A stretch of DNA of 23,470 nucleotides from an uncultured Eubacteriales bacterium (GTDB taxonomy: Bacteria > Bacillota > Clostridia > Lachnospirales > CAYPQA01): contig CAYPQA010000024.1 of the NCBI GenBank assembly GCA_964412725.1, forward strand, positions 1 through 23,470. Direction: 5' to 3'. The notes beneath the pieces were generated by a model. The model did no database searches. It saw nothing but the letters and a program-made list of their open reading frames with translations, and was not told the origin of the DNA. A program made the translations under genes and the position numbers. Positions 1,702-10,462 of this stretch are shown piece by piece (positions within the stretch are counted from its first letter, which is position 1; the number at the start of each line of letters is the position of its first letter).

Positions 1702-2679
1702 CTATTCAGAGTTCAATTTAAACTGCCTGTATATACGTTCCTTGACCTTTTCGAGAAAATGCTCGGGGCCCAGAACCTTTAGAACGGGGCCGAAACTCAA
1801 AATGCGTATCAAAAGCTCGGTTTCGTCTTGGGTATCATAAAATATGCGGCAGATGAAAAAGTTGTTTTCTTCATCATACTCTGTTTGTTTTTCCCAAGAT
1901 GCAAATTGAAGCATGCAACGTTCAAGCGCGTTACGCTCCTTTGAGATTTGTAAAACTATAGGCTCTGATGAAAAGTTGTTGAAATAACGTTCCGGCTTGA
2001 AATCCGAGGACACATTTTCGCCGGAGATACAAACATCAATAATACGGGACAAATTTAGCGTTATGCCCTTATGTCTTAGATTTTGTAGCGTAACACATAG
2101 CAAGCGGAATTTGTCGTCACGGCTTGAATAGCTTATCTTGTATGGAAACACAGTGTGCTTTGCTGGCGTACGGGAGCTGGTCTCGTAGTTTACATAAATA
2201 ACCTTTCTATCGTTGCAGGCTTGAAGTATGGTTCTGAAATTTCTTATGTATTGCTCATTGTCGTATGGATCGCCGTCGGACGCTGTATCAAAAATATGAA
2301 AATCCTCTTGAAGAAACAACGGCTCGACATCGGCCAGTTCATTATTCAGATATTTAACGTCGTCTTCGGAAAGAAATAGCAGTATTCGCTTATCGGTCAA
2401 CAGCGACTTGATCCAAGACTTTTCCAAAAGCGTCATGGGTCTTTCTGTCTCGGAATTAAGCTTTGAATAGAATTTGCCGTCCTCTTTCTTGTCGAGCAGG
2501 TGCCATTCGTCCGAGAAAAGCTTGGGCAGCATATGAAAGGCACTGTCATAGAACCCATCGGTGCAGACGAGTTTTTCTATATCTGCCCTGTGCATGCCCG
2601 CTTTTGACATATTCAATATCCTTGCCACAACTGTATAATAACAGCCGTAAACCTCCGAAAATAGTAAATCAGATACCAT
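1702..2679 (-). CDS. WYL-domain transcriptional regulator (wHTH-WYL-WCX architecture, PafB/PafC-like)
   Basis: WYL-like core DRKVIYVNYETSSRTPAKHTVFPYKISYSSRDDKFRLLCVT. C-terminal extension ELLIRILSFGPVLKVLGPEHFLEKV matches the WCX/C-terminal motif of WYL regulators. 325 aa is typical for PafB/C, BrxR and CapW. Overlaps the upstream WYL gene by 11 nt (operon). Confidence 0.75.
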   Translation of the reverse strand: MVSDLLFSEVYGCYYTVVARILNMSKAGMHRADIEKLVCTDGFYDSAFHMLPKLFSDEWHLLDKKEDGKFYSKLNSETERPMTLLEKSWIKSLLTDKRILLFLSEDDVKYLNNELADVEPLFLQEDFHIFDTASDGDPYDNEQYIRNFRTILQACNDRKVIYVNYETSSRTPAKHTVFPYKISYSSRDDKFRLLCVTLQNLRHKGITLNLSRIIDVCISGENVSSDFKPERYFNNFSSEPIVLQISKERNALERCMLQFASWEKQTEYDEENNFFICRIFYDTQDETELLIRILSFGPVLKVLGPEHFLEKVKERIYRQFKLNSE

Positions 2680-3898
2680 ATAATTCCTTCATCCTTTTAA
2701 TATCGTTATAAAAGCGGTTAATAACCGTGCTGTCCGTGCCTTCAAGCTGAATTATTCGCCCCATAAAAGTCTTTATCCATGGCGAAATATCGTTAAGGTC
2801 AAACAATTCCTTTGTGTAGAGGAAGATATTCTTGTCCAAATGCACAAGCTCGCCGCCATGTCCCTCTCTTATTATCCTTTCTATTATATACCCCTCTTTT
2901 TCCTCATCTATAAAAAGCTTCATACACACAAGCTGATTCCTATTTCTGCCTCCGAAACAAACTCCCCATACTTTGTCTATATTCTTTTCAAGATTTTCTC
3001 TATAAAGCGGAACCTCGTCGCAAACATCACGCAGTTTTAATGTCATTATATGGTCTAAGCGGTAACTGAAATATCTTCTGGTTTCTGTCTTATACACACA
3101 AACGTAACGACGTCCTGTTGCCGTGCTTACAAAAATTTTCAAAGGTATACCAATGATACTACCCAACTTTTGTGTTTTTTCGCAGTAGTTCTCAAATTCT
3201 ACAGACATATTTTGCCTTATCGCAGTAAGCAGTTGCAAAAGAATGCCGCTCTCTAAGGTGTGAGCCACATAATAATGCTTAAACGCAAAGGTATCGTTCG
3301 AAGTCTGTTCATTATCCATAATATGTCTTCCGATTTCACCAAACGGTGCGGCTCCCTGAAAAAACTTTACAGCCTCTATTAATCCCGGAATCTTTTCCGA
3401 CAAACGGCTGAAATATAAATCCGAAAGACTATAGAGAAGTGTTTTGCCGTTTTTCTTAGCCGTCAAAAGCCCTGCCTTAAGATATTCCGTACACTTTAAC
3501 CTGACCGTCTGCACATCAAACACCTGTTCGCTTTGCTCGGATACAGCGTTCGTGAGCTGTTCGACAGACAATTCCAAGCCTTTTATGAGAACGTCCATAA
3601 TATAGAAATGCAGCATAATATCATTGGCTGTAAAAGCCTTAGACTTCCAAGCCGAATAAAGCGGGTTCACACGGATTTTGGCGCAATCCATTGAAATAAA
3701 AGATGTCTTCCCAGACTTGGTATAGGACCACTTCATATACTCGCCTAAATAACTCTCAATTCGTCGTTTTTCATTGTCGTATGTACGCGGTGATTTATGC
3801 TTAAAATCATTGCGTGACTTAAAGCCATAAATATAAAAATCGCGCATATATACCCTTATCTTATCAAAATTTCTAATTAACTCGTTAAATTCCCTCAT
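2669..3898 (-). CDS. WYL-domain transcriptional regulator, second paralogue, with a roughly 130-aa N-terminal extension
   Basis: wHTH-like segment VQTVRLKCTEYLKAGLLTAKKNGKTLLYSLSDLY, WYL-like core GRRYVCVYKTETRRYFSYRLDHIMTLKL, C-terminal PWIKTFMGRIIQLEG. The tool start is GTG 3937; the first ATG (3898, MREFNELIRN) has a weak GGTGAGAG upstream. Start is uncertain within 3898-3937. Confidence 0.7.
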   Translation of the reverse strand: MREFNELIRNFDKIRVYMRDFYIYGFKSRNDFKHKSPRTYDNEKRRIESYLGEYMKWSYTKSGKTSFISMDCAKIRVNPLYSAWKSKAFTANDIMLHFYIMDVLIKGLELSVEQLTNAVSEQSEQVFDVQTVRLKCTEYLKAGLLTAKKNGKTLLYSLSDLYFSRLSEKIPGLIEAVKFFQGAAPFGEIGRHIMDNEQTSNDTFAFKHYYVAHTLESGILLQLLTAIRQNMSVEFENYCEKTQKLGSIIGIPLKIFVSTATGRRYVCVYKTETRRYFSYRLDHIMTLKLRDVCDEVPLYRENLEKNIDKVWGVCFGGRNRNQLVCMKLFIDEEKEGYIIERIIREGHGGELVHLDKNIFLYTKELFDLNDISPWIKTFMGRIIQLEGTDSTVINRFYNDIKRMKELYGI

Positions 3899-4011
3899 TC
3901 TCTCACCAACTTCGCAACTTTTTTTAAATGATAACACTGCAAATTAATGGTAATATCTTAGCATAGCAAACAAACATTAACAATTAAAATTGAATGAAAG
4001 GATGTGATTAT

Positions 4012-5244
4012 ATGTTTGTTATTGCTAACGAAGATACAAGAGTGCCGATTAAGATTTGGCTTAAGGATGAAAAGAGTTTGGAAGAGAGCTGTATTGAACA
4101 AGCATATAATCTATCCAAGCTGCCGTTTTTGCATAAGTGGGTCGCATTGATGCCCGATACGCATACAGGCATGGGCATGCCAATCGGCGGCGTTATAGCC
4201 ACAACCGACGTTATCATCCCGAATGCGGTTGGCGTTGACATAGGCTGTGGTATGGCTTTCGTGAGCACAAACATCCCTGTTTCCGAAATTAAGGATATTC
4301 AAACCGGAAATGGTATGTTTATAAATGCAATGATAGGCGACATACTCCGCAACATTCCGCTTGGTTTCAGGCACCACAAAAAACCGCAACCTTGTCATAC
4401 GCTTGACGATGCATTTGAAGAACTCGACAAGTACGAGGAAAACGGAGAGCTTTTGGGACAGCTTGAAGCTGGCTATTTCCAAGTTGGAACCTTGGGCGGC
4501 GGCAACCACTTTATAGAACTACAGCAGGATGATGAGGGTTATCTTGCAGTTATGATACACTCGGGGAGCCGTAACTTTGGAAAACAAATTTGTGACGCTT
4601 TTCATAGAACCGCAAGAGAATTAAACATAAAATGGCACAGTGCAGTACCGCCAGAATACAGGCTTGCTTTTCTTCCTGTCGATTCAAAAGAAGGTATTCA
4701 GTACATAAATTGGATGAATCTTGCATTGAACTTTGCGGCTGAAAACCGTCTTAGAATGATTCTTGCTGTAAAAGCCATTCTTGAAAAATGGATCGGCAAG
4801 TACACCGATTTAAGCATTGAGTATGATATGGAAATAAACTGTCACCATAATTATGCGGCCATAGAAAACCATTACAACCAAAACGTATGGGTACACCGCA
4901 AGGGTGCAACAAGGGCAGAATCCGGTGAACTGGCTGTGATACCCGGTGCTATGGGTTCTTACAGCTATGTTGTGGAAGGTCTCGGCAACGAAATGAGTTT
5001 TAAAAGCTCATCTCATGGCGCAGGACGCAGATATTCGAGAAAAGGCGCAATGGCCGCCTTCACCACAGAACAGGTTATGGTCGACTTAAACAAGCAAGGT
5101 GTTGTCTTAGGCAAGTACAATAAAAACGATGTTGCCGAGGAAAGCCGCTTTGCTTACAAAGACATTGACGAAGTTATGGAAAACCAAAAGGATTTGGTTA
5201 AGCCCATAAAGAGATTAAAGACATTAGGTGTAGTAAAAGGATAA
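4012..5244 (+). CDS. rtcB: RtcB RNA 3'-phosphate/2',3'-cyclic phosphate ligase
   Basis: Hallmark RtcB motifs: DTHTGMGMPIGG, HSGSRNFG, CHHNYAAIE, SHGAGRRYSRK. The ATG at 4012 follows RBS AAGGATG at the canonical spacing. The upstream ATG 3994 lacks an RBS. Confidence 0.95.
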   Translation: MFVIANEDTRVPIKIWLKDEKSLEESCIEQAYNLSKLPFLHKWVALMPDTHTGMGMPIGGVIATTDVIIPNAVGVDIGCGMAFVSTNIPVSEIKDIQTGNGMFINAMIGDILRNIPLGFRHHKKPQPCHTLDDAFEELDKYEENGELLGQLEAGYFQVGTLGGGNHFIELQQDDEGYLAVMIHSGSRNFGKQICDAFHRTARELNIKWHSAVPPEYRLAFLPVDSKEGIQYINWMNLALNFAAENRLRMILAVKAILEKWIGKYTDLSIEYDMEINCHHNYAAIENHYNQNVWVHRKGATRAESGELAVIPGAMGSYSYVVEGLGNEMSFKSSSHGAGRRYSRKGAMAAFTTEQVMVDLNKQGVVLGKYNKNDVAEESRFAYKDIDEVMENQKDLVKPIKRLKTLGVVKG

Positions 5245-5264
5245 AAAGAAGGGCTTTTGTCCCT

Positions 5265-5465
5265 CACGGCGCAAGCGGCTCTGCCTACTTGTGTTCCGTC
5301 AATTTAGCGTCTTATGACGCCTTGCATTAAAATTCATGGGTTCAAATCCCATACTCCTTTAAGGAGTTAGCTAAGTGGTAACGCATTTATTTTAAGAATT
5401 AAAAAACGTGCGGCATTCAATGAATCCGCAACACGAATTCGGGCTTGCGGCGAGGCGGATATCGT
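5265..5465 (+). ncRNA. candidate tRNA-mimic (Y-RNA/YrlA-like, circularly permuted tRNA-like) element downstream of rtcB; boundaries are approximate
   Basis: T-arm ATGGG-TTCAAAT-CCCAT (5336-5352) carries the tRNA T-loop consensus. Next comes ACTCCTT (5353-5359), one nt, then its complement AAGGAGT (5361-5367), which forms a closed acceptor-like stem. A D-arm-like GTTA-GCTAAGTGG-TAAC (5366-5382) with the GG dinucleotide follows. Flanking segments CGCAAGC (5270-5276) and GCTTGCG (5443-5449) can pair as an enclosing stem. There is no strong terminator between the rtcB stop and this element, so co-transcription is plausible. Confidence 0.3.
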
Positions 5466-5579
5466 AAAATCAAGCCACCTGTGAAGAAAGCAATTGCTAA
5501 ATATATGCGATGATTTTACTCAAGCTTTGCCCCCCACGAATTTGTGGATTGTAACTACTCATGATTGGAGATGAAAGAT

Positions 5580-6674
5580 ATGAAAATGATAATAAATGAG
5601 AATGAGAGAGGGTTTCTTTTTAAGAACGGTAAGTTTTTGCGTATGATAATGCCGGGTAAGCATAATGTTTTTCCGTTTTTAGGGGACTCGTGCATCAAGA
5701 CACAGATAGGCAGCAGGGTTAACGTAACCAATGTTGAGATTAATGTTCTTTTAACGGACAAGAATTTTTCGGACAGTGTCACAAAGATTGAAGTGCCTGA
5801 TTTTCAATTTGCGTTCCACTCGGAAGACGGACGTATCGTTGAGGTATTGAAATCCGGTACATATTATTTTTGGAATGTCTTTCATAGGCATACATTCCAG
5901 TTTGTTGACATAAGCGAGCCACAGGTAAACTTGCCCAAGGAGATGATGGCACATGTGCCAATCGGCATGTACACAAGAATTGAAGTTCCGGAAGGCGAAA
6001 CGGGATTATTATTCTTCGATGGCAAATTCCGTGAGCAGTTAAGCAGCGGCAGTTATTACTTCTGGAATTATTCTACAAAGGTTACTTGCCAGCTTGTTGA
6101 CACGCGCACCCAACAGCTTGACGTAAATAGTCAGGAGATACTGACAGCTGACAAGGTTTCATTAAGGCTGAATTTCGTCTGCACCTACAAAATTACCGAC
6201 GCTGTGAGCATAAACAACTCGCTTAAAGACTACAAGAATCAGATTTACGTTATAACACAGCTTGCACTTAGGGAATATGTTGGAAGATTGAAATTTGACG
6301 AATTGCTTGAGCAAAAGGACAGCATCGCACGCATTGTGCTCCAAAACCTAAGAGAAAAGCAGTCGGAATTATACGTTGAATTTACGGATGCAGGATTGAA
6401 GGACATAATCTTGCCCGGAGAGATTAGAGAAATTATGAACACAGTTCTCATAGCCGAGAAGAACGCACAAGCCAATGTAATCTCGCGCCGCGAGGAGGTT
6501 GCGTCAACAAGGAGCCTTTTGAACACAGCCAAGCTTATGGACGAAAACACAACGCTATACAAGCTTAAAGAGCTTGAGTTCATAGAAAAGATTTGTGAAA
6601 AGGTTGGAAACATATCCGTAGGAAACGGGAATCTTTTTGAGCAACTAAGCAAGGTTTTTGCACTTACGTCTTGA
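5580..6674 (+). CDS. SPFH/band-7 (stomatin/flotillin/HflK-like) domain protein with no predicted TM segment and a duplicated N-terminal SPFH segment
   Basis: SPFH-type start ENERGFLFKNGKFLRMIMPGKHNVFPFLG...LTDKN. A second copy follows: PEGETGLLFFDGKFREQLSSGSYYFW...LTADKVSLRLNFVCTYKITDA. A coiled-coil-like C-terminal half follows that. The ATG at 5580 has GGAG 9 nt upstream. The tool start at 5565 is a TTG overlapping the RBS. Confidence 0.8.
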   Translation: MKMIINENERGFLFKNGKFLRMIMPGKHNVFPFLGDSCIKTQIGSRVNVTNVEINVLLTDKNFSDSVTKIEVPDFQFAFHSEDGRIVEVLKSGTYYFWNVFHRHTFQFVDISEPQVNLPKEMMAHVPIGMYTRIEVPEGETGLLFFDGKFREQLSSGSYYFWNYSTKVTCQLVDTRTQQLDVNSQEILTADKVSLRLNFVCTYKITDAVSINNSLKDYKNQIYVITQLALREYVGRLKFDELLEQKDSIARIVLQNLREKQSELYVEFTDAGLKDIILPGEIREIMNTVLIAEKNAQANVISRREEVASTRSLLNTAKLMDENTTLYKLKELEFIEKICEKVGNISVGNGNLFEQLSKVFALTS

Positions 6675-8073: not shown

Positions 8074-8178
8074 CGAGTGCTTCGCCACTTTAAGTGCGAC
8101 TTATTGAATTGAGTGCTTCGCCACTTTAAGCGCGACTTATTGAATTAAGTGCTTCGCCACTTTAAGCGCGACTTATGA
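8074..8178 (+). ncRNA. toxI: type III toxin-antitoxin RNA antitoxin (ToxI/AntiQ-like): 2.9 tandem 36-nt direct repeats
   Basis: R1 8074-8109 gagtgcttcgccactttaagtgcgacttattgaatt; R2 8110-8145 is identical except for t>c; R3 8146-8178 is partial. It is immediately followed by an intrinsic terminator and then a ToxN-family gene, the canonical ToxIN layout. The repeat contains CTTTAAGTGC, and GAATT where ToxI has GAAATTC, which resembles Pectobacterium ToxI as I recall it. Confidence 0.7.
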
Positions 8179-8180
8179 TA

Positions 8181-8208
8181 GAGGTGGACTGGTTCCACCT
8201 CTTTTTTT
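8181..8208 (+). terminator. intrinsic terminator between the repeat RNA and the toxin gene
   Basis: GAGGTGGA (8181-8188), loop CTGGT, TCCACCTC (8194-8201), TTTTTTT (8202-8208). This matches the attenuating terminator that sets the toxI:toxN ratio in ToxIN loci. Confidence 0.7.
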
Positions 8209-8222
8209 GGGAGAAAAATATT

Positions 8223-8735
8223 ATGATTGATTTTTACGACGTAGATAAGAAATACATAGAGTTTCTGCAGAATTCAGAAACTGAAGTTAGAGGATTTACT
8301 CGCGTGCCAAATATGGAATACGGAGTTAGAATGCAAAAATTTCTGTGCGGTATTGTACTTAAGATTAATGAAATAAACTACTATGTTCCTGTGACTTCAA
8401 AAAAAGAAAGATTGCCGGATTCAGTACTTGTTTTAATACCCACAGATAAAATCGACCAAATAAAGGGGTCTTTAAAATTCAACTATATGATACCTGTGCC
8501 TGATTTTGCAATAACTGTTCGTAAAATAAACTCAGAACCTGATTTGTCAAGAAGGCGATTTTTAAACGGTCAATTGCTATACTGTCAGAGCATAGAAACG
8601 ATTATTTTGAACCAAGCAAGGCGTACATATAATAAATGGTTTGAAGGCAAAGGCAGTGAACGTTTTTACTATAATTGTTGTGACTTCAAGCTTTTAGAGG
8701 AGAAATACAAAGAGTTTATCGAGACTAACAAATAA
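8223..8735 (+). CDS. toxN: ToxN/AbiQ-family type III TA endoribonuclease toxin
   Basis: 170 aa. N-terminal IDFYDVDKKYIEFLQ matches ToxN KFYTISSKYIEYLK. GIVLKINEINYYVPVTS matches GIVLEIQGHKYLAPLTS. LKFNYMIPV and C-terminal CDFKLLEEKYKEF match CDFAVLEEKYRDF. The ATG at 8223 has GGGAG 9 nt upstream. The tool start 8175 runs through the terminator hairpin and is rejected. Confidence 0.85.
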   Translation: MIDFYDVDKKYIEFLQNSETEVRGFTRVPNMEYGVRMQKFLCGIVLKINEINYYVPVTSKKERLPDSVLVLIPTDKIDQIKGSLKFNYMIPVPDFAITVRKINSEPDLSRRRFLNGQLLYCQSIETIILNQARRTYNKWFEGKGSERFYYNCCDFKLLEEKYKEFIETNK

Positions 8736-8930: not shown

Positions 8931-9704
8931 GTGGTAAATGTAGTTATATATGCGGATGTAATCTTTGCTATAAACTTTTTAATGGACTTGATTATTCTAT
9001 GGAGCGTTTCATATTTTGCGAAAAAACATCTAAGAGGCAAGCTTTACCTTGTGCTTGCCGCAGCACTTATGGCGTTGTCCTCTTGTTTCGGATTTTTCAC
9101 GGCCGGTATTTTGAAAATTCTTTTGTCGGTTGTAACGGTTTTTGCGGGTGTTTTTACAGCGTTCAAGATAAATAACATTTTCCGACTGCTTATTGTGTCC
9201 GCATTGATGTATATAGCCGCATTTTTCATAGGCGGTCTTACATTATTTCTTTTTCTGAATGTCAAGTCCTTTTCAATTTTACTATTGGTTTCATCTGCCT
9301 CCCTTTTCTACATAAGCTTTAGTGCCGTTAAATATATCTTTCGCCACTTACCCAAACAAAAGATTTTAAACGTCAGTATAAGCTTTCAGGAAAGGGAGGT
9401 TATTTTGCCTATGCTGGTTGACACAGGCAACTCACTCTCTGAGCCTGTCAGCGGCTTGCCTGTTTTCATTGCGGAGGCTTCAAGACTTGAGAGCATTTTG
9501 AGCGACGAAACTGTTTTGAGGCCTGTTGTGTTTAATACAATCTCGGGCGCGGATACGTGCATGTGTTTTAAGCCCGACCGCGTCTTGGTTGACGGTTTGC
9601 CCATTAATGAAATTTATATAGCTTTGCAAAATATAAAATTTTCAGAGAATAACGTCTATTGCGGCCTTATTAATCCAAAGGCTTTGCCCGACGGATTGTT
9701 TTAG
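8931..9704 (+). CDS. spoIIGA: sporulation sigma-E processing aspartic peptidase SpoIIGA
   Basis: Multi-TM N-terminal half (VIYADVIFAINFLMDLIILW...) and a C-terminal protease domain with LVDTGN (DTG aspartyl-protease motif). Lies immediately upstream of sigE as in Bacillus and Clostridium. GTG start, uncertain by a few codons. Confidence 0.85.
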   Translation: MVNVVIYADVIFAINFLMDLIILWSVSYFAKKHLRGKLYLVLAAALMALSSCFGFFTAGILKILLSVVTVFAGVFTAFKINNIFRLLIVSALMYIAAFFIGGLTLFLFLNVKSFSILLLVSSASLFYISFSAVKYIFRHLPKQKILNVSISFQEREVILPMLVDTGNSLSEPVSGLPVFIAEASRLESILSDETVLRPVVFNTISGADTCMCFKPDRVLVDGLPINEIYIALQNIKFSENNVYCGLINPKALPDGLF

Positions 9705-9724
9705 AGGCTTCTTAAGGAGGATGT

Positions 9725-10462
9725 ATGATAGAGCGATTGTTTAAACAGATTATAAATAAATTTATGACGGAAATTCATAATAAGTACTCTCATAAAGAAT
9801 CAGAGGACGAAGTTTTTTATATAAGCGGTAGTGAGGTGTTGCCATTGCCGCTTAACGCGGACGAGGAGGCTGAGCTTTTGGAACAGCTTGGCGGCGAAAA
9901 TGATGAGAATGTACGTGCAAAGCTTATCGAGCGAAACCTGCGTCTTGTTGTATACATCGCACGAAAATTTGAAAACACGGGCGTTAATATTGAAGATTTA
10001 ATTTCTATCGGAACAATAGGGCTGATAAAATCCATTAACACATTTAAAACGGATAAGAAAATTAAGCTTGCAACCTATGCGTCCAGATGTATTGAAAACG
10101 AGATTTTAATGTATTTGAGAAGGAATACAAAAACAAAAACGGAGGTTTCGATTGATGAGCCGTTGAATGTGGACTGGGAGGGCAACGAGCTTTTGCTTTC
10201 GGATATTCTTGGTACAGACGTGGATATTATATATAGAAATGTCGAGGACGAGGTTGACAGAAGTCTTTTAAATCAAGCCCTAAGCCGTCTTTCAAAACGC
10301 GAAAAACGCATTGTGGAGCTTCGGTTCGGTATAAACTGTGACGGCGAGGAAAAAACCCAAAAGGAGGTTGCCGACATCTTGGGCATTTCACAATCCTACA
10401 TATCAAGGCTCGAAAAAAAGATTATCGGCAGGCTTAAAAAAGAAATATCGGGTATGTTTTGA
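9725..10462 (+). CDS. sigE: RNA polymerase sporulation sigma factor SigE (pro-sigma-E)
   Basis: Pro-sequence with [14 protein letters not shown]. Regions 2-4 are near-identical to B. subtilis SigE: [92 protein letters not shown]. Confidence 0.95.

Follow-up and report, generated by a model that had tools for sequence, protein, structure and literature searches.

Between the gene for the RNA ligase RtcB and a gene for an SPFH/Band-7 protein ('slipin'), the locus described here carries a short element that looks like parts of a tRNA arranged in an unusual order, which raises the question of what this element is and to which of its neighbours it belongs. The source is contig CAYPQA010000024.1 (GCA_964412725.1) of an uncultured Eubacteriales bacterium, of which a stretch of 23,470 nt (the window) was analysed; locally, a divergent pair (a WYL regulator and a protein of 409-422 aa) is followed by rtcB, a spacer of 335 nt and the SPFH/Band-7 gene. 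A reading made from the letters without database searches (the sequence-only reading) had proposed, at 5265-5465, a circularly permuted tRNA-like element resembling the YrlA-type Y RNAs that bind Ro60, with the SPFH protein or the WYL regulators as possible partners. Our results show that the element does mimic a tRNA and follows the strand order of YrlA (variable loop, T-arm, closed acceptor, D-arm, closing stem), that the spacer between rtcB and SPFH is filled by a conserved structured RNA of ~300 nt (~5250-5546) in which the element forms one domain, and that this RNA is genetically tied to the SPFH gene, not to rtcB or to the type of regulator.

A tRNA-like unit in permuted order

On the plus strand, which carries all the RNA elements described here, positions 5336-5384 hold three tRNA elements in permuted order: T-arm, closed acceptor-like hairpin and D-arm. 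The T-arm (5336-5352), equivalent to positions 46-63 of the Rfam tRNA model, has a 5-bp stem AUGGG/CCCAU and the loop UUCAAAU. Stacked directly on the T-stem is the closed acceptor-like hairpin ACUCCUU-U-AAGGAGU (5353-5367), by its letters a 7-nt inverted repeat and in RNAfold a helix of 5-6 bp with a loop of 3-5 nt. A UA spacer (U8-A9) then leads to the D-arm GCUAAGUGGUAACGC, which ends at 5384 and retains A14, G15, G18 and G19, with A5385 as position 26 (5368-5385 in all). The unit is enclosed by an anticodon-stem-like closing helix, in which UAAA (5328-5331), followed by the 4-nt variable loop AUUC (together 5328-5335), pairs with UUUA (5386-5389); in the relatives, too, a variable loop of 4-5 nt lies 5' of the T-arm and a single base 3' of the D-stem. 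The bases involved in tertiary contacts are present in the window (U8, A14, G15 with C48 at C5335, G18 G19, and the T-loop UUCRA with its closing G-C pair), as read in tRNA numbering against the invariant columns of the unit alignment A2, namely U8, C11, A14 and G18.

Relatives were obtained by a genome scan, which gave 80 loci; the survey described below counts 80 loci with at least 400 nt upstream of SPFH, the window among them. Across 19 units, 87.6% of the cells in the three helices are paired, compared with 64.2% after shuffling, and the covariation is 0.627 versus 0.195, a value that none of 500 shuffles reached. The T-arm is 100% paired, with compensatory changes in 3/5 pairs (A2), and the acceptor hairpin, whose sequence is different in nearly every locus, changes on both sides in 7/7 pairs over the 19 units. 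The D-stem covaries among the relatives as well, and the closing helix, which reads AUGAU/AUCAU, GUGAU/AUCAC or AGACA/UGUCU in them, changes on both sides in 3/5 pairs. In the single-unit subfamily nearest to the window, the unit with its closing stem is 93.8% paired and 0 of 500 shuffles are as high. Compensatory base changes, which had been suggested as a check on the element, are thus seen in every stem of the alignment.

A covariance model built from 18 units of other genomes, with the window left out (R2), was searched against both strands of all 23.5 kb with filters off. It matched 5332-5389 with 62.5 bits (E ~1e-15), the runner-up scoring 7.2 bits; because the model was trained without the window, this difference places the unit beyond chance. 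T-arm, closed acceptor and D-arm lie where the sequence-only reading had put them, in the strand order of an opened tRNA that is typical of YrlA, and all four helices covary in the relatives. One detail differs from that reading: a D-arm region is present, but the pairing GUUA/UAAC by which it had been drawn (5366-5369 with 5379-5382) shares bases with the acceptor stem and represents an alternative. By homology, the D-stem consists of G5370-C5384 and C5371-G5383 followed by two mismatches, which leaves just two canonical pairs in the window.

The unit is not a canonical tRNA gene, in which the acceptor joins the 5' and 3' ends and the anticodon loop has 7 nt; here the acceptor is closed by a loop of 1-5 nt, and the anticodon arm is absent from the window copy. 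ARAGORN found 0 tRNA genes in the window, where the Rfam tRNA model matches the T-arm alone (14 bits), no Rfam family reached its gathering score and there was no cis-regulatory match. At the RNA site of six related loci and of Burkholderia, ARAGORN does call a tRNA.

Some relatives carry chains of two or three units (L046 5496-5720, L005 5381-5589, L003 5549-5696 and L004 5651-5769), made of T-arm, closed acceptor, D-arm and an anticodon-like hairpin, with an orphan T-arm at the end. A single stretch in them, L046 5598-5655, scores above the Rfam tRNA threshold, its acceptor stem not being part of the match. The unit model R1, used for the survey described below, also matches the junctions of genuine neighbouring tRNA genes (L004 587-663, L008 10165-10251, L032 9182-9329); such junctions, formed by the T-arm of one gene and the D-arm of the next, are a class of false positives of which Chen et al. 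have warned (PMC4201824).

The RNA accompanies the SPFH gene

With R1, 67 of the 80 loci proved to have same-strand units no more than 750 nt upstream of SPFH (61 loci with a single unit, 4 with two and 2 with three), and 7 of the 13 loci without a near unit carry one further upstream. The carrier loci belong mostly to separate species of Clostridia; the SPFH protein itself has thousands of homologues. Two gene orders were recognized. The first, rtcB-RNA-SPFH, is that of the window, where the rtcB stop codon (5242-5244) indeed puts the element right after rtcB, as had been stated. This description holds for that order only, since most relatives have the RNA after the WYL gene: in the second and commoner order, WYL-terminator-RNA-SPFH-rtcB, a gap of ~500 nt precedes SPFH and rtcB is distant, 3' of SPFH. 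RtcB or RlaP is found in most related loci, and in some relatives rtcB is absent or truncated. The proposed tie of the RNA to rtcB is accordingly given up, rtcB being downstream of SPFH, absent or truncated in most relatives. Because the unit lies just 5' of SPFH in both gene orders, the RNA belongs to the SPFH gene. Among the partners that had been proposed, the SPFH protein is therefore the best fit, the more so as the RNA is directly 5' of SPFH in Burkholderia and E. coli too.

In the second order, a terminator-like hairpin and T run follow the WYL gene, and a conserved extended -10 element, TGgTAAAAT, lies just 5' of the RNA, ~7 nt before its first conserved base. The whole block is very conserved; in L010 (5490-5560), for example, the WYL-gene terminator CUGCGGACUC...GAGUUCGCAGC with its U run is followed by CCGTGAAAAA and then by the extended -10 element.

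The spacing between unit and SPFH varies in a few loci. In seven of them (L011, L037, L055, L068, L072, L073 and L076) the unit is 900-1400 nt upstream of SPFH; the sequence in between was read in one, L011, and looks protein-coding. In L064, L065 and L075, 4-5 copies of a GC-rich repeat of ~45 nt (GGGCGCCGGGCGGCAAAACGTCUGGC...) between the 3' part of the RNA and SPFH stretch the spacer to 650-850 nt, and the 3'-domain model described below is without a match there. In L085 (4468-9511, the same locus as L006), rtcB is down to a remnant of 63 aa, with the RNA and SPFH intact.

Counterparts in Proteobacteria

The order in Burkholderia is RtcR, RNA, slipin, RtcB, with RtcR divergent upstream. In E. 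coli, a sigma-54-type promoter element TGGCAC-N5-TCGCA (TGGCACGCTTCTCGCA) is followed by an RNA with a T-arm and a closed acceptor, by slipin and by RlaP, between yjbD and lysC (loci L087 5678-5992 and L089 7001-7336). Of 5426 complete E. coli genomes, 1632 (30%) carry this RNA/promoter region; no RNA annotation lies over it in one RefSeq genome inspected or in the feature listings of the best-matching genomes. Folded as a single sequence, the E. coli RNA gives z = -1.48.

The Proteobacterial loci bear on the role suggested for the RNA as a ligand or decoy of the WYL regulators. In the Clostridia the WYL regulator stays beside the module in both gene orders, whereas in Proteobacteria the RNA is kept and RtcR or a sigma-54 promoter replaces the WYL pair. 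The regulator is thus interchangeable, which argues against the RNA as a WYL ligand.

In Burkholderia arboris (L088 5600-5740), an extra T-arm precedes a true cloverleaf: its acceptor stem is properly paired, a GAAA tetraloop closes its anticodon stem, and ARAGORN labels it 'tRNA-???'. Comparison of this form with the Clostridial one suggests an origin of the permuted YrlA-type topology from tandem tRNA-like units.

A structured RNA of about 300 nt

Sequence conservation runs from just past the rtcB stop codon to ~20 nt 5' of the SPFH ribosome-binding site. The span 5265-5465 proposed earlier thus does hold the tRNA-like element, but sits inside a longer RNA (~5250-5546). RNAalifold on a full-length alignment of 34 loci with the RNA after the WYL gene gave a rough structure, and the domains were therefore analysed separately. 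With RNAfold, the window sequence has a minimum free energy (MFE) fold (z = -3.43) that contains all of the helices P1, P2, T-arm, acceptor, H_a, H_c and P-x and leaves the SPFH ribosome-binding site unpaired; folding had been recommended as a check, and both T-arm and acceptor hairpin were reproduced by it.

The 3' domain contains three helices, one inside the other. Its outer helix, H_a, is formed by CACGAAUU (5432-5439) and AAUUUGUG (5539-5546), the last conserved element before the ~20 nt leading to the SPFH ribosome-binding site, with 8/8 pairs; in the consensus, AUGCAA/UUGCAU, 6/6 pairs change on both sides. Nested in it, H_c joins GGCGAGGC (5449-5456) to GCUUUGCC (5524-5531), again with 8/8 pairs, all eight of which change on both sides in the consensus CUGAGAAC/GUUUUCAG. 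The junction inside H_c contains GGAUAUCGU (5457-5465) and with it a near-invariant octamer of the family, GGAUACCG, which here reads GGAUAUCG (5457-5464); it occurs in ~60 loci, mostly 115-131 nt 5' of the SPFH start. The innermost hairpin, P-x (5466-5517), pairs AAAAUCA (5466-5472) with UGAUUUU (5511-5517) over 7/7 pairs around a variable interior, and the equivalent helix of the relatives changes on both sides in 5/6 pairs. A second junction, CUCAA (5519-5523), leads into the 3' strand of H_c (together 5519-5531). These elements were assessed in A7, a 3'-domain alignment of 21 diverse relatives from which the window was excluded; the columns of the octamer and the CU.AA of the second junction are invariant in it. 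For the three nested helices, 86.1% of cells are paired compared with 59.1% after shuffling, the covariation is 0.755 versus 0.247 (0 of 500 shuffles as high), and both-side changes occur in 19/20 pairs. A model of the 3' domain trained without the window (R3) matches the window at 5428-5549 with 35.9 bits (E ~1e-6).

At the 5' end, the conserved RNA begins with the hairpin P1 (AGGGC UUUU GUCCCU, 5250-5264), which is in the MFE fold and has an AGGG..CCCU counterpart in the relatives. It is followed by P2 (GCGCAAG-C-GGC UCU GCC-UA-CUUGUGU, 5269-5294), which appears in the MFE fold and covaries: 98.6% of its cells are paired, and its covariation of 0.358, versus 0.151 after shuffling, is reached by 0 of 200 shuffles. 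The conserved GUGUUCCG (5291-5298, consensus GUAUGCCG) comes after P2, and a small hairpin GCGUC UUAU GACGC (5307-5320) is found in MFE folds of the window sequence. By complementarity, ACGGCG (5266-5271, consensus GCGGUG) is a candidate pseudoknot or long-range partner of UAUCGU (5460-5465). Among 49 sequences, 94% of the cells of GCGGUG/UACCGU pair, without covariation, since GCGGUG and the GGAUACCG to which it is complementary are both invariant.

Around the tRNA-like insert, UUGC (5322-5325) and GCAA (5428-5431) form a candidate helix with weak support, which is 89% paired, has a covariation reached by 10 of 200 shuffles and competes with the hairpin GCGG-CAUUCAAUGAAU-CCGC (5410-5429) of the MFE fold. 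L001, L005, L009 and L046 have a second, terminal T-arm (UGUGG UUCRANU CCACA) at the site matching this hairpin, and from its position alone we infer that the hairpin is homologous to that arm.

Two other pairings were considered and set aside. GGUAU pairs with AUACC of GGAUACCG in 80% of cases, with no covariation, and GGUAU sits in the covarying P2 instead; a long-range pairing of 5268-5277 with 5443-5452, seen in a first MFE fold, is displaced by the covarying P2 and H_c.

The SPFH protein and a proposed role for the RNA

The SPFH protein (364 aa; P0001, 100% identity) has no hydrophobic segment. Its AlphaFold2 model (pLDDT 84) comprises three N-terminal beta modules, the SPFH domain and a long C-terminal helix. 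In Foldseek the top matches were membrane SPFH proteins (stomatin, HflK/C); the C-terminal 240 residues were matched to the cage-forming stomatin, HflK/C, prohibitin and erlin, and the full length to chains of the major vault protein, aligned over ~420-460 columns. By its sequence the protein is thus soluble, and in fold it is like the SPFH proteins that form cages and like the major vault protein; a soluble, oligomeric SPFH scaffold with a dedicated RNA appears plausible.

On balance we favour the reading that, within an RtcB repair module, the SPFH scaffold has this RNA as its cognate partner, with the tRNA-like unit as one domain of the ~300-nt molecule. Transcription of the operon would yield the RNA as the 5' portion of the SPFH message, and the RNA would be to the oligomeric SPFH scaffold what a Y RNA is to Ro60. 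Its acceptor/T minihelix and elbow would be presented to the tRNA-recognizing enzymes of the repair module, so that the tRNA-shaped module could dock enzymes that read tRNA shape, such as RtcB, RlaP or CCA-adding nucleotidyltransferases, and RNase P. Alternatively, it could substitute for a damaged tRNA, and the SPFH particle would then organize or regulate tRNA repair. RlaP is described as adding nucleotides to damaged tRNA halves (PMC12776372), and this activity on cleaved tRNAs makes contacts of the RNA with tRNA enzymes credible. The RNA might act in trans after its release or in cis while still on the SPFH message, and the two roles may coexist.

Several points weigh against this reading. 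The RNA is known from sequence alone, and its contact with the SPFH protein is inferred from gene linkage only. The strict position in the 5' untranslated region and the fixed spacing to the start codon would suit a cis-regulatory leader equally well. In the window, the two canonical pairs of the D-stem and the four A-U pairs of the closing stem make for a fold that is weak-sided and may be less tRNA-like than in the relatives. R3 has no matches on the E. coli and Burkholderia sequences, and homology of the whole RNA across phyla is not claimed. Finally, the identification of the RNA with the Band-7-associated RNA discussed below rests on a secondary description (bioRxiv 10.1101/312249).

Alternative explanations

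The main rival, which we regard as unlikely, is a cis-regulatory leader, in which the mimic would be an operator for the SPFH protein, RtcB or another tRNA-binding factor and would set the translation of SPFH: free protein would bind the leader, and damaged tRNAs would titrate it away. The operator of ThrRS and the leaders of ribosomal-protein genes follow the same titration logic. Such a role would agree with the place of the RNA directly 5' of SPFH and of GGAUACCG ~120 nt before the start codon in most loci, with the promoter-like elements directly 5' of the RNA in the second Clostridial order and in E. coli, and with the course of the transcript, there being no terminator between RNA and SPFH and the last helix ending ~20 nt before the ribosome-binding site. 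In the window itself, no plus-strand terminator-like site was found between rtcB and SPFH (5245-5579). However, we saw no conserved helix that would hide the ribosome-binding site and no terminator/antiterminator pair, and a structure of ~300 nt with arrays of 1-3 units exceeds the needs of a simple operator. Moreover, about seven loci seem to have an extra open reading frame (ORF) or a long spacer between RNA and SPFH, and Y RNAs are described as embedded in operons and yet acting in trans (PMC7790460).

A bolder proposal, to which we likewise assign a low probability, has the tRNA-like element (1-3 copies) as the variable, modular head of a large, uncatalogued leader RNA, equipped with the covarying 3' domain and perhaps with a pseudoknot, that nucleates or gates a soluble, vault-like SPFH cage on its own message. 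The resulting 'mini-vault' would capture damaged tRNAs for RtcB/RlaP, the mimic serving as placeholder or operator. If this were true, the contrast of Burkholderia, where a true cloverleaf comes after an extra T-arm, with Clostridia and E. coli, where the upstream strand closes the acceptor, would show YrlA-type mimics arising from tandem tRNA-like duplications.

It is also conceivable, but improbable, that the RNA acts independently of SPFH as a decoy or competitive inhibitor, an uncleavable module absorbing tRNA-targeting nucleases or modifying toxins; a similar idea has been raised for YrlA (PMC7790460). The RNA retains the elbow and the acceptor/T minihelix of a tRNA but not the anticodon loop, at which nucleases usually aim: the window has none, and Burkholderia has a GAAA-capped stem in its place. 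Toxin genes are nearby, ToxN in the window and zeta toxin in E. coli. A decoy would nevertheless leave both the strict linkage to SPFH and the conserved, non-tRNA 3' domain unexplained, and anticodon nucleases mostly read the anticodon loop, which is just what is missing here.

We consider it highly improbable that the RNA is a Y RNA of the true YrlA type whose Ro60/Rsr protein is encoded in another part of the genome. The permuted topology is that of YrlA, the rtcB neighbourhood is as described for Salmonella (bioRxiv 10.1101/312249), and the covariance-model scan that had been recommended did return YrlA (RF02553) as the best Rfam match, at 5314-5419, together with the T-arm found by the tRNA model. 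Yet this match scores 27.2 bits (E 9e-4, in a 471-nt search at permissive thresholds), far under the gathering threshold of 69 bits, which was reached neither in the window nor in 11 related loci. The second helix of the Rfam model, which stands between the terminal stem and the tRNA-like domain, is without a counterpart, its 5' side being deleted. The motif GNCGAAN0-1G, described as lying near the 5' end of YrlA and as the likely contact of Rsr (PMC4201824), is not in 5245-5579 and is found in 21 of 80 relatives at scattered positions, compared with 15 of 80 after shuffling, i.e. at chance level. In published cases, YrlA and a Ro60/TROVE gene are encoded on the same strand, at most ~4 kb apart (PMC4201824). 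The absence of a Ro60/TROVE gene from the window, remarked on before, is borne out by a scan of its ORFs, and no TROVE gene occurs within 10 kb in three annotated related loci (L083-L085) or in L001. Because only the tRNA-like domain, of the three published features, is present, the RNA is not a YrlA in the strict sense, and the membership that had been suggested for it is abandoned.

The thought that the element is a degenerate tRNA fragment or integration (att) scar without a function of its own, for which the negative ARAGORN result and the T-arm-only match of the Rfam tRNA model (14 bits) would be suitable if taken alone, as in a tRNA 3' fragment, has a negligible probability and is rejected by synteny and covariation: an acceptor 5' strand and a D-arm follow the 3' half, unlike in a scar, 67 of 80 loci have the unit at an equivalent site upstream of SPFH, every stem shows compensatory changes, no integrase gene was found among the window ORFs scanned, and a search for SPFH relatives in viral contigs and phage records returned none.

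Neighbouring genes

On the minus strand, upstream of rtcB, lies the divergent pair. Its second member is the gene for the WYL-domain regulator (325 aa, 1702-2679; Pfam WYL E 4e-4, PADLOC WYL E 7.5e-16). The other is the gene for the protein of 409-422 aa (2669-3937), which is without a strong family match (zero matches in Pfam, NCBIfam and PADLOC), though its homologues in L083 and L084 have a weak match to WYL (PF13280). Its true start is probably ATG 3898, because tblastn alignments open at residue 14. The plus strand carries rtcB (3994-5244; Pfam RtcB E 5.5e-113) and the SPFH gene (5567-6674), with GGAG at 5567-5570, ATG at 5580 and a Pfam Band_7 match of E 5.7e-30. Further downstream, spoIIGA and a sigma-factor gene (8931-10462) point to a genome of Clostridia type.

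The region 8075-8735, ~1.5 kb 3' of the RNA-repair module, has a 36-nt tandem repeat (2.8 copies, 96% match) directly 5' of a ToxN-family ORF (8175-8735), the arrangement of a type III toxin-antitoxin locus (ToxI-like RNA antitoxin and endoribonuclease). In the E. coli RefSeq genome of L089, a zeta-toxin gene lies on the opposite strand in the same island. In L083 (1258-4184), a defence island is hinted at by genes for FRG-domain and AIPR (abortive-infection) proteins, which precede the module by a few kb, and in L085 a RlaP gene and a gene for a CCA-adding-type nucleotidyltransferase adjoin the WYL pair.

Comparison with known systems

The chains in L046 and L005 look like head-to-tail tRNAs and invite comparison with tandem or permuted tRNA genes. 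Here, however, neighbouring units are joined by pairing of their acceptor strands, with 3-9 nt in the loop, and because each acceptor hairpin has its own sequence, cutting the chains would not release normal tRNAs.

Among leader RNAs, a T-box or riboswitch-type element does not fit, as neither a terminator/antiterminator nor a helix hiding the ribosome-binding site was found. The thrS operator, a cis-acting mimic of the anticodon arm of tRNA-Thr in an mRNA leader, is similar in that a tRNA-shaped element stands in the 5' untranslated region of a gene whose product presumably handles tRNA. It differs from the window RNA, which copies the elbow and acceptor side, is far larger and shows no overlap with the ribosome-binding site.

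With YrlA the window RNA shares the permuted tRNA-like domain, the elbow nucleotides, an operon-embedded position near rtcB and an acceptor stem of ~7 bp; in Mycobacterium smegmatis, an acceptor stem of 7 bp makes YrlA a substrate for RNase P cleavage and for CCA addition (PMC4201824). It differs by having no nearby Ro60 gene, no GNCGAA motif and no Ro-binding helix. The flanking scaffold consists here of P1, P2, H_a, H_c, P-x and GGAUACCG, and the partner gene is SPFH.

The closest known counterpart is a Band-7-associated tRNA-like RNA, reportedly predicted by Burroughs and Aravind in Nucleic Acids Res in 2016. According to a later account, that prediction placed RtcB next to a Band-7 protein and a 'band 7-associated tRNA', an RNA which 'strongly resembles an authentic tRNA' and was unvalidated in 2018; the same source notes that a YrlA-type RNA occasionally adjoins a Band-7 gene (bioRxiv 10.1101/312249). 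The window RNA fits this predicted 'b7a-tRNA': it is tRNA-like, it stands beside a Band-7/SPFH gene, ending ~20 nt before the ribosome-binding site of that gene, and it is in an RtcB repair neighbourhood, with rtcB directly upstream. A YrlA-type element next to Band-7 is the very case of the window, and the Burkholderia relative is a near-canonical cloverleaf, as described for b7a-tRNA. Unlike a b7a-tRNA, the window copy is no cloverleaf, its acceptor being closed by the strand after the upstream T-arm and the anticodon arm being absent. As far as the secondary description allows a comparison, the tRNA-like part belongs here, as one domain, to a larger covarying RNA (~300 nt), and relatives have 1-3 units in tandem.

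The view of the element as an orphan novelty must therefore be dropped, since an association of RtcB, Band-7 and a tRNA-like RNA had already been predicted (bioRxiv 10.1101/312249). Searchable literature yielded no later validation of a Band-7-linked tRNA-like RNA, and there is no Rfam family for it. The kind of system was thus foreseen in 2016; what may be new relative to that paper is the ~300-nt scaffold, the repetition of units in tandem and the vault-like partner. Although RtcB systems occur widely in bacteria, little is understood of their accessory factors. The present analysis supplies a structural definition of one such candidate (unit, closing stem, 3' domain and GGAUACCG) and evidence for its ownership by SPFH, in carriers that are open to experiments, such as E. 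coli, Burkholderia, Anaerocolumna (A. xylanovorans) and Enterocloster (E. lavalensis); [Clostridium] asparagiforme is a carrier as well.

On the protein side, the likeness is to the vault (major vault protein and vault RNA) and to Ro60-Y RNA, with N-terminal beta repeats, an SPFH 'shoulder', a long helix and a dedicated structured RNA. The SPFH protein differs in having only 364 aa and about three repeats, and no TEP1/TROVE or PARP partner, and the system is known from genes and a model. Ro60 with its Y RNA, the vault with its vault RNA and putative particles of SPFH protein with a tRNA mimic would thus form a parallel that can be tested.

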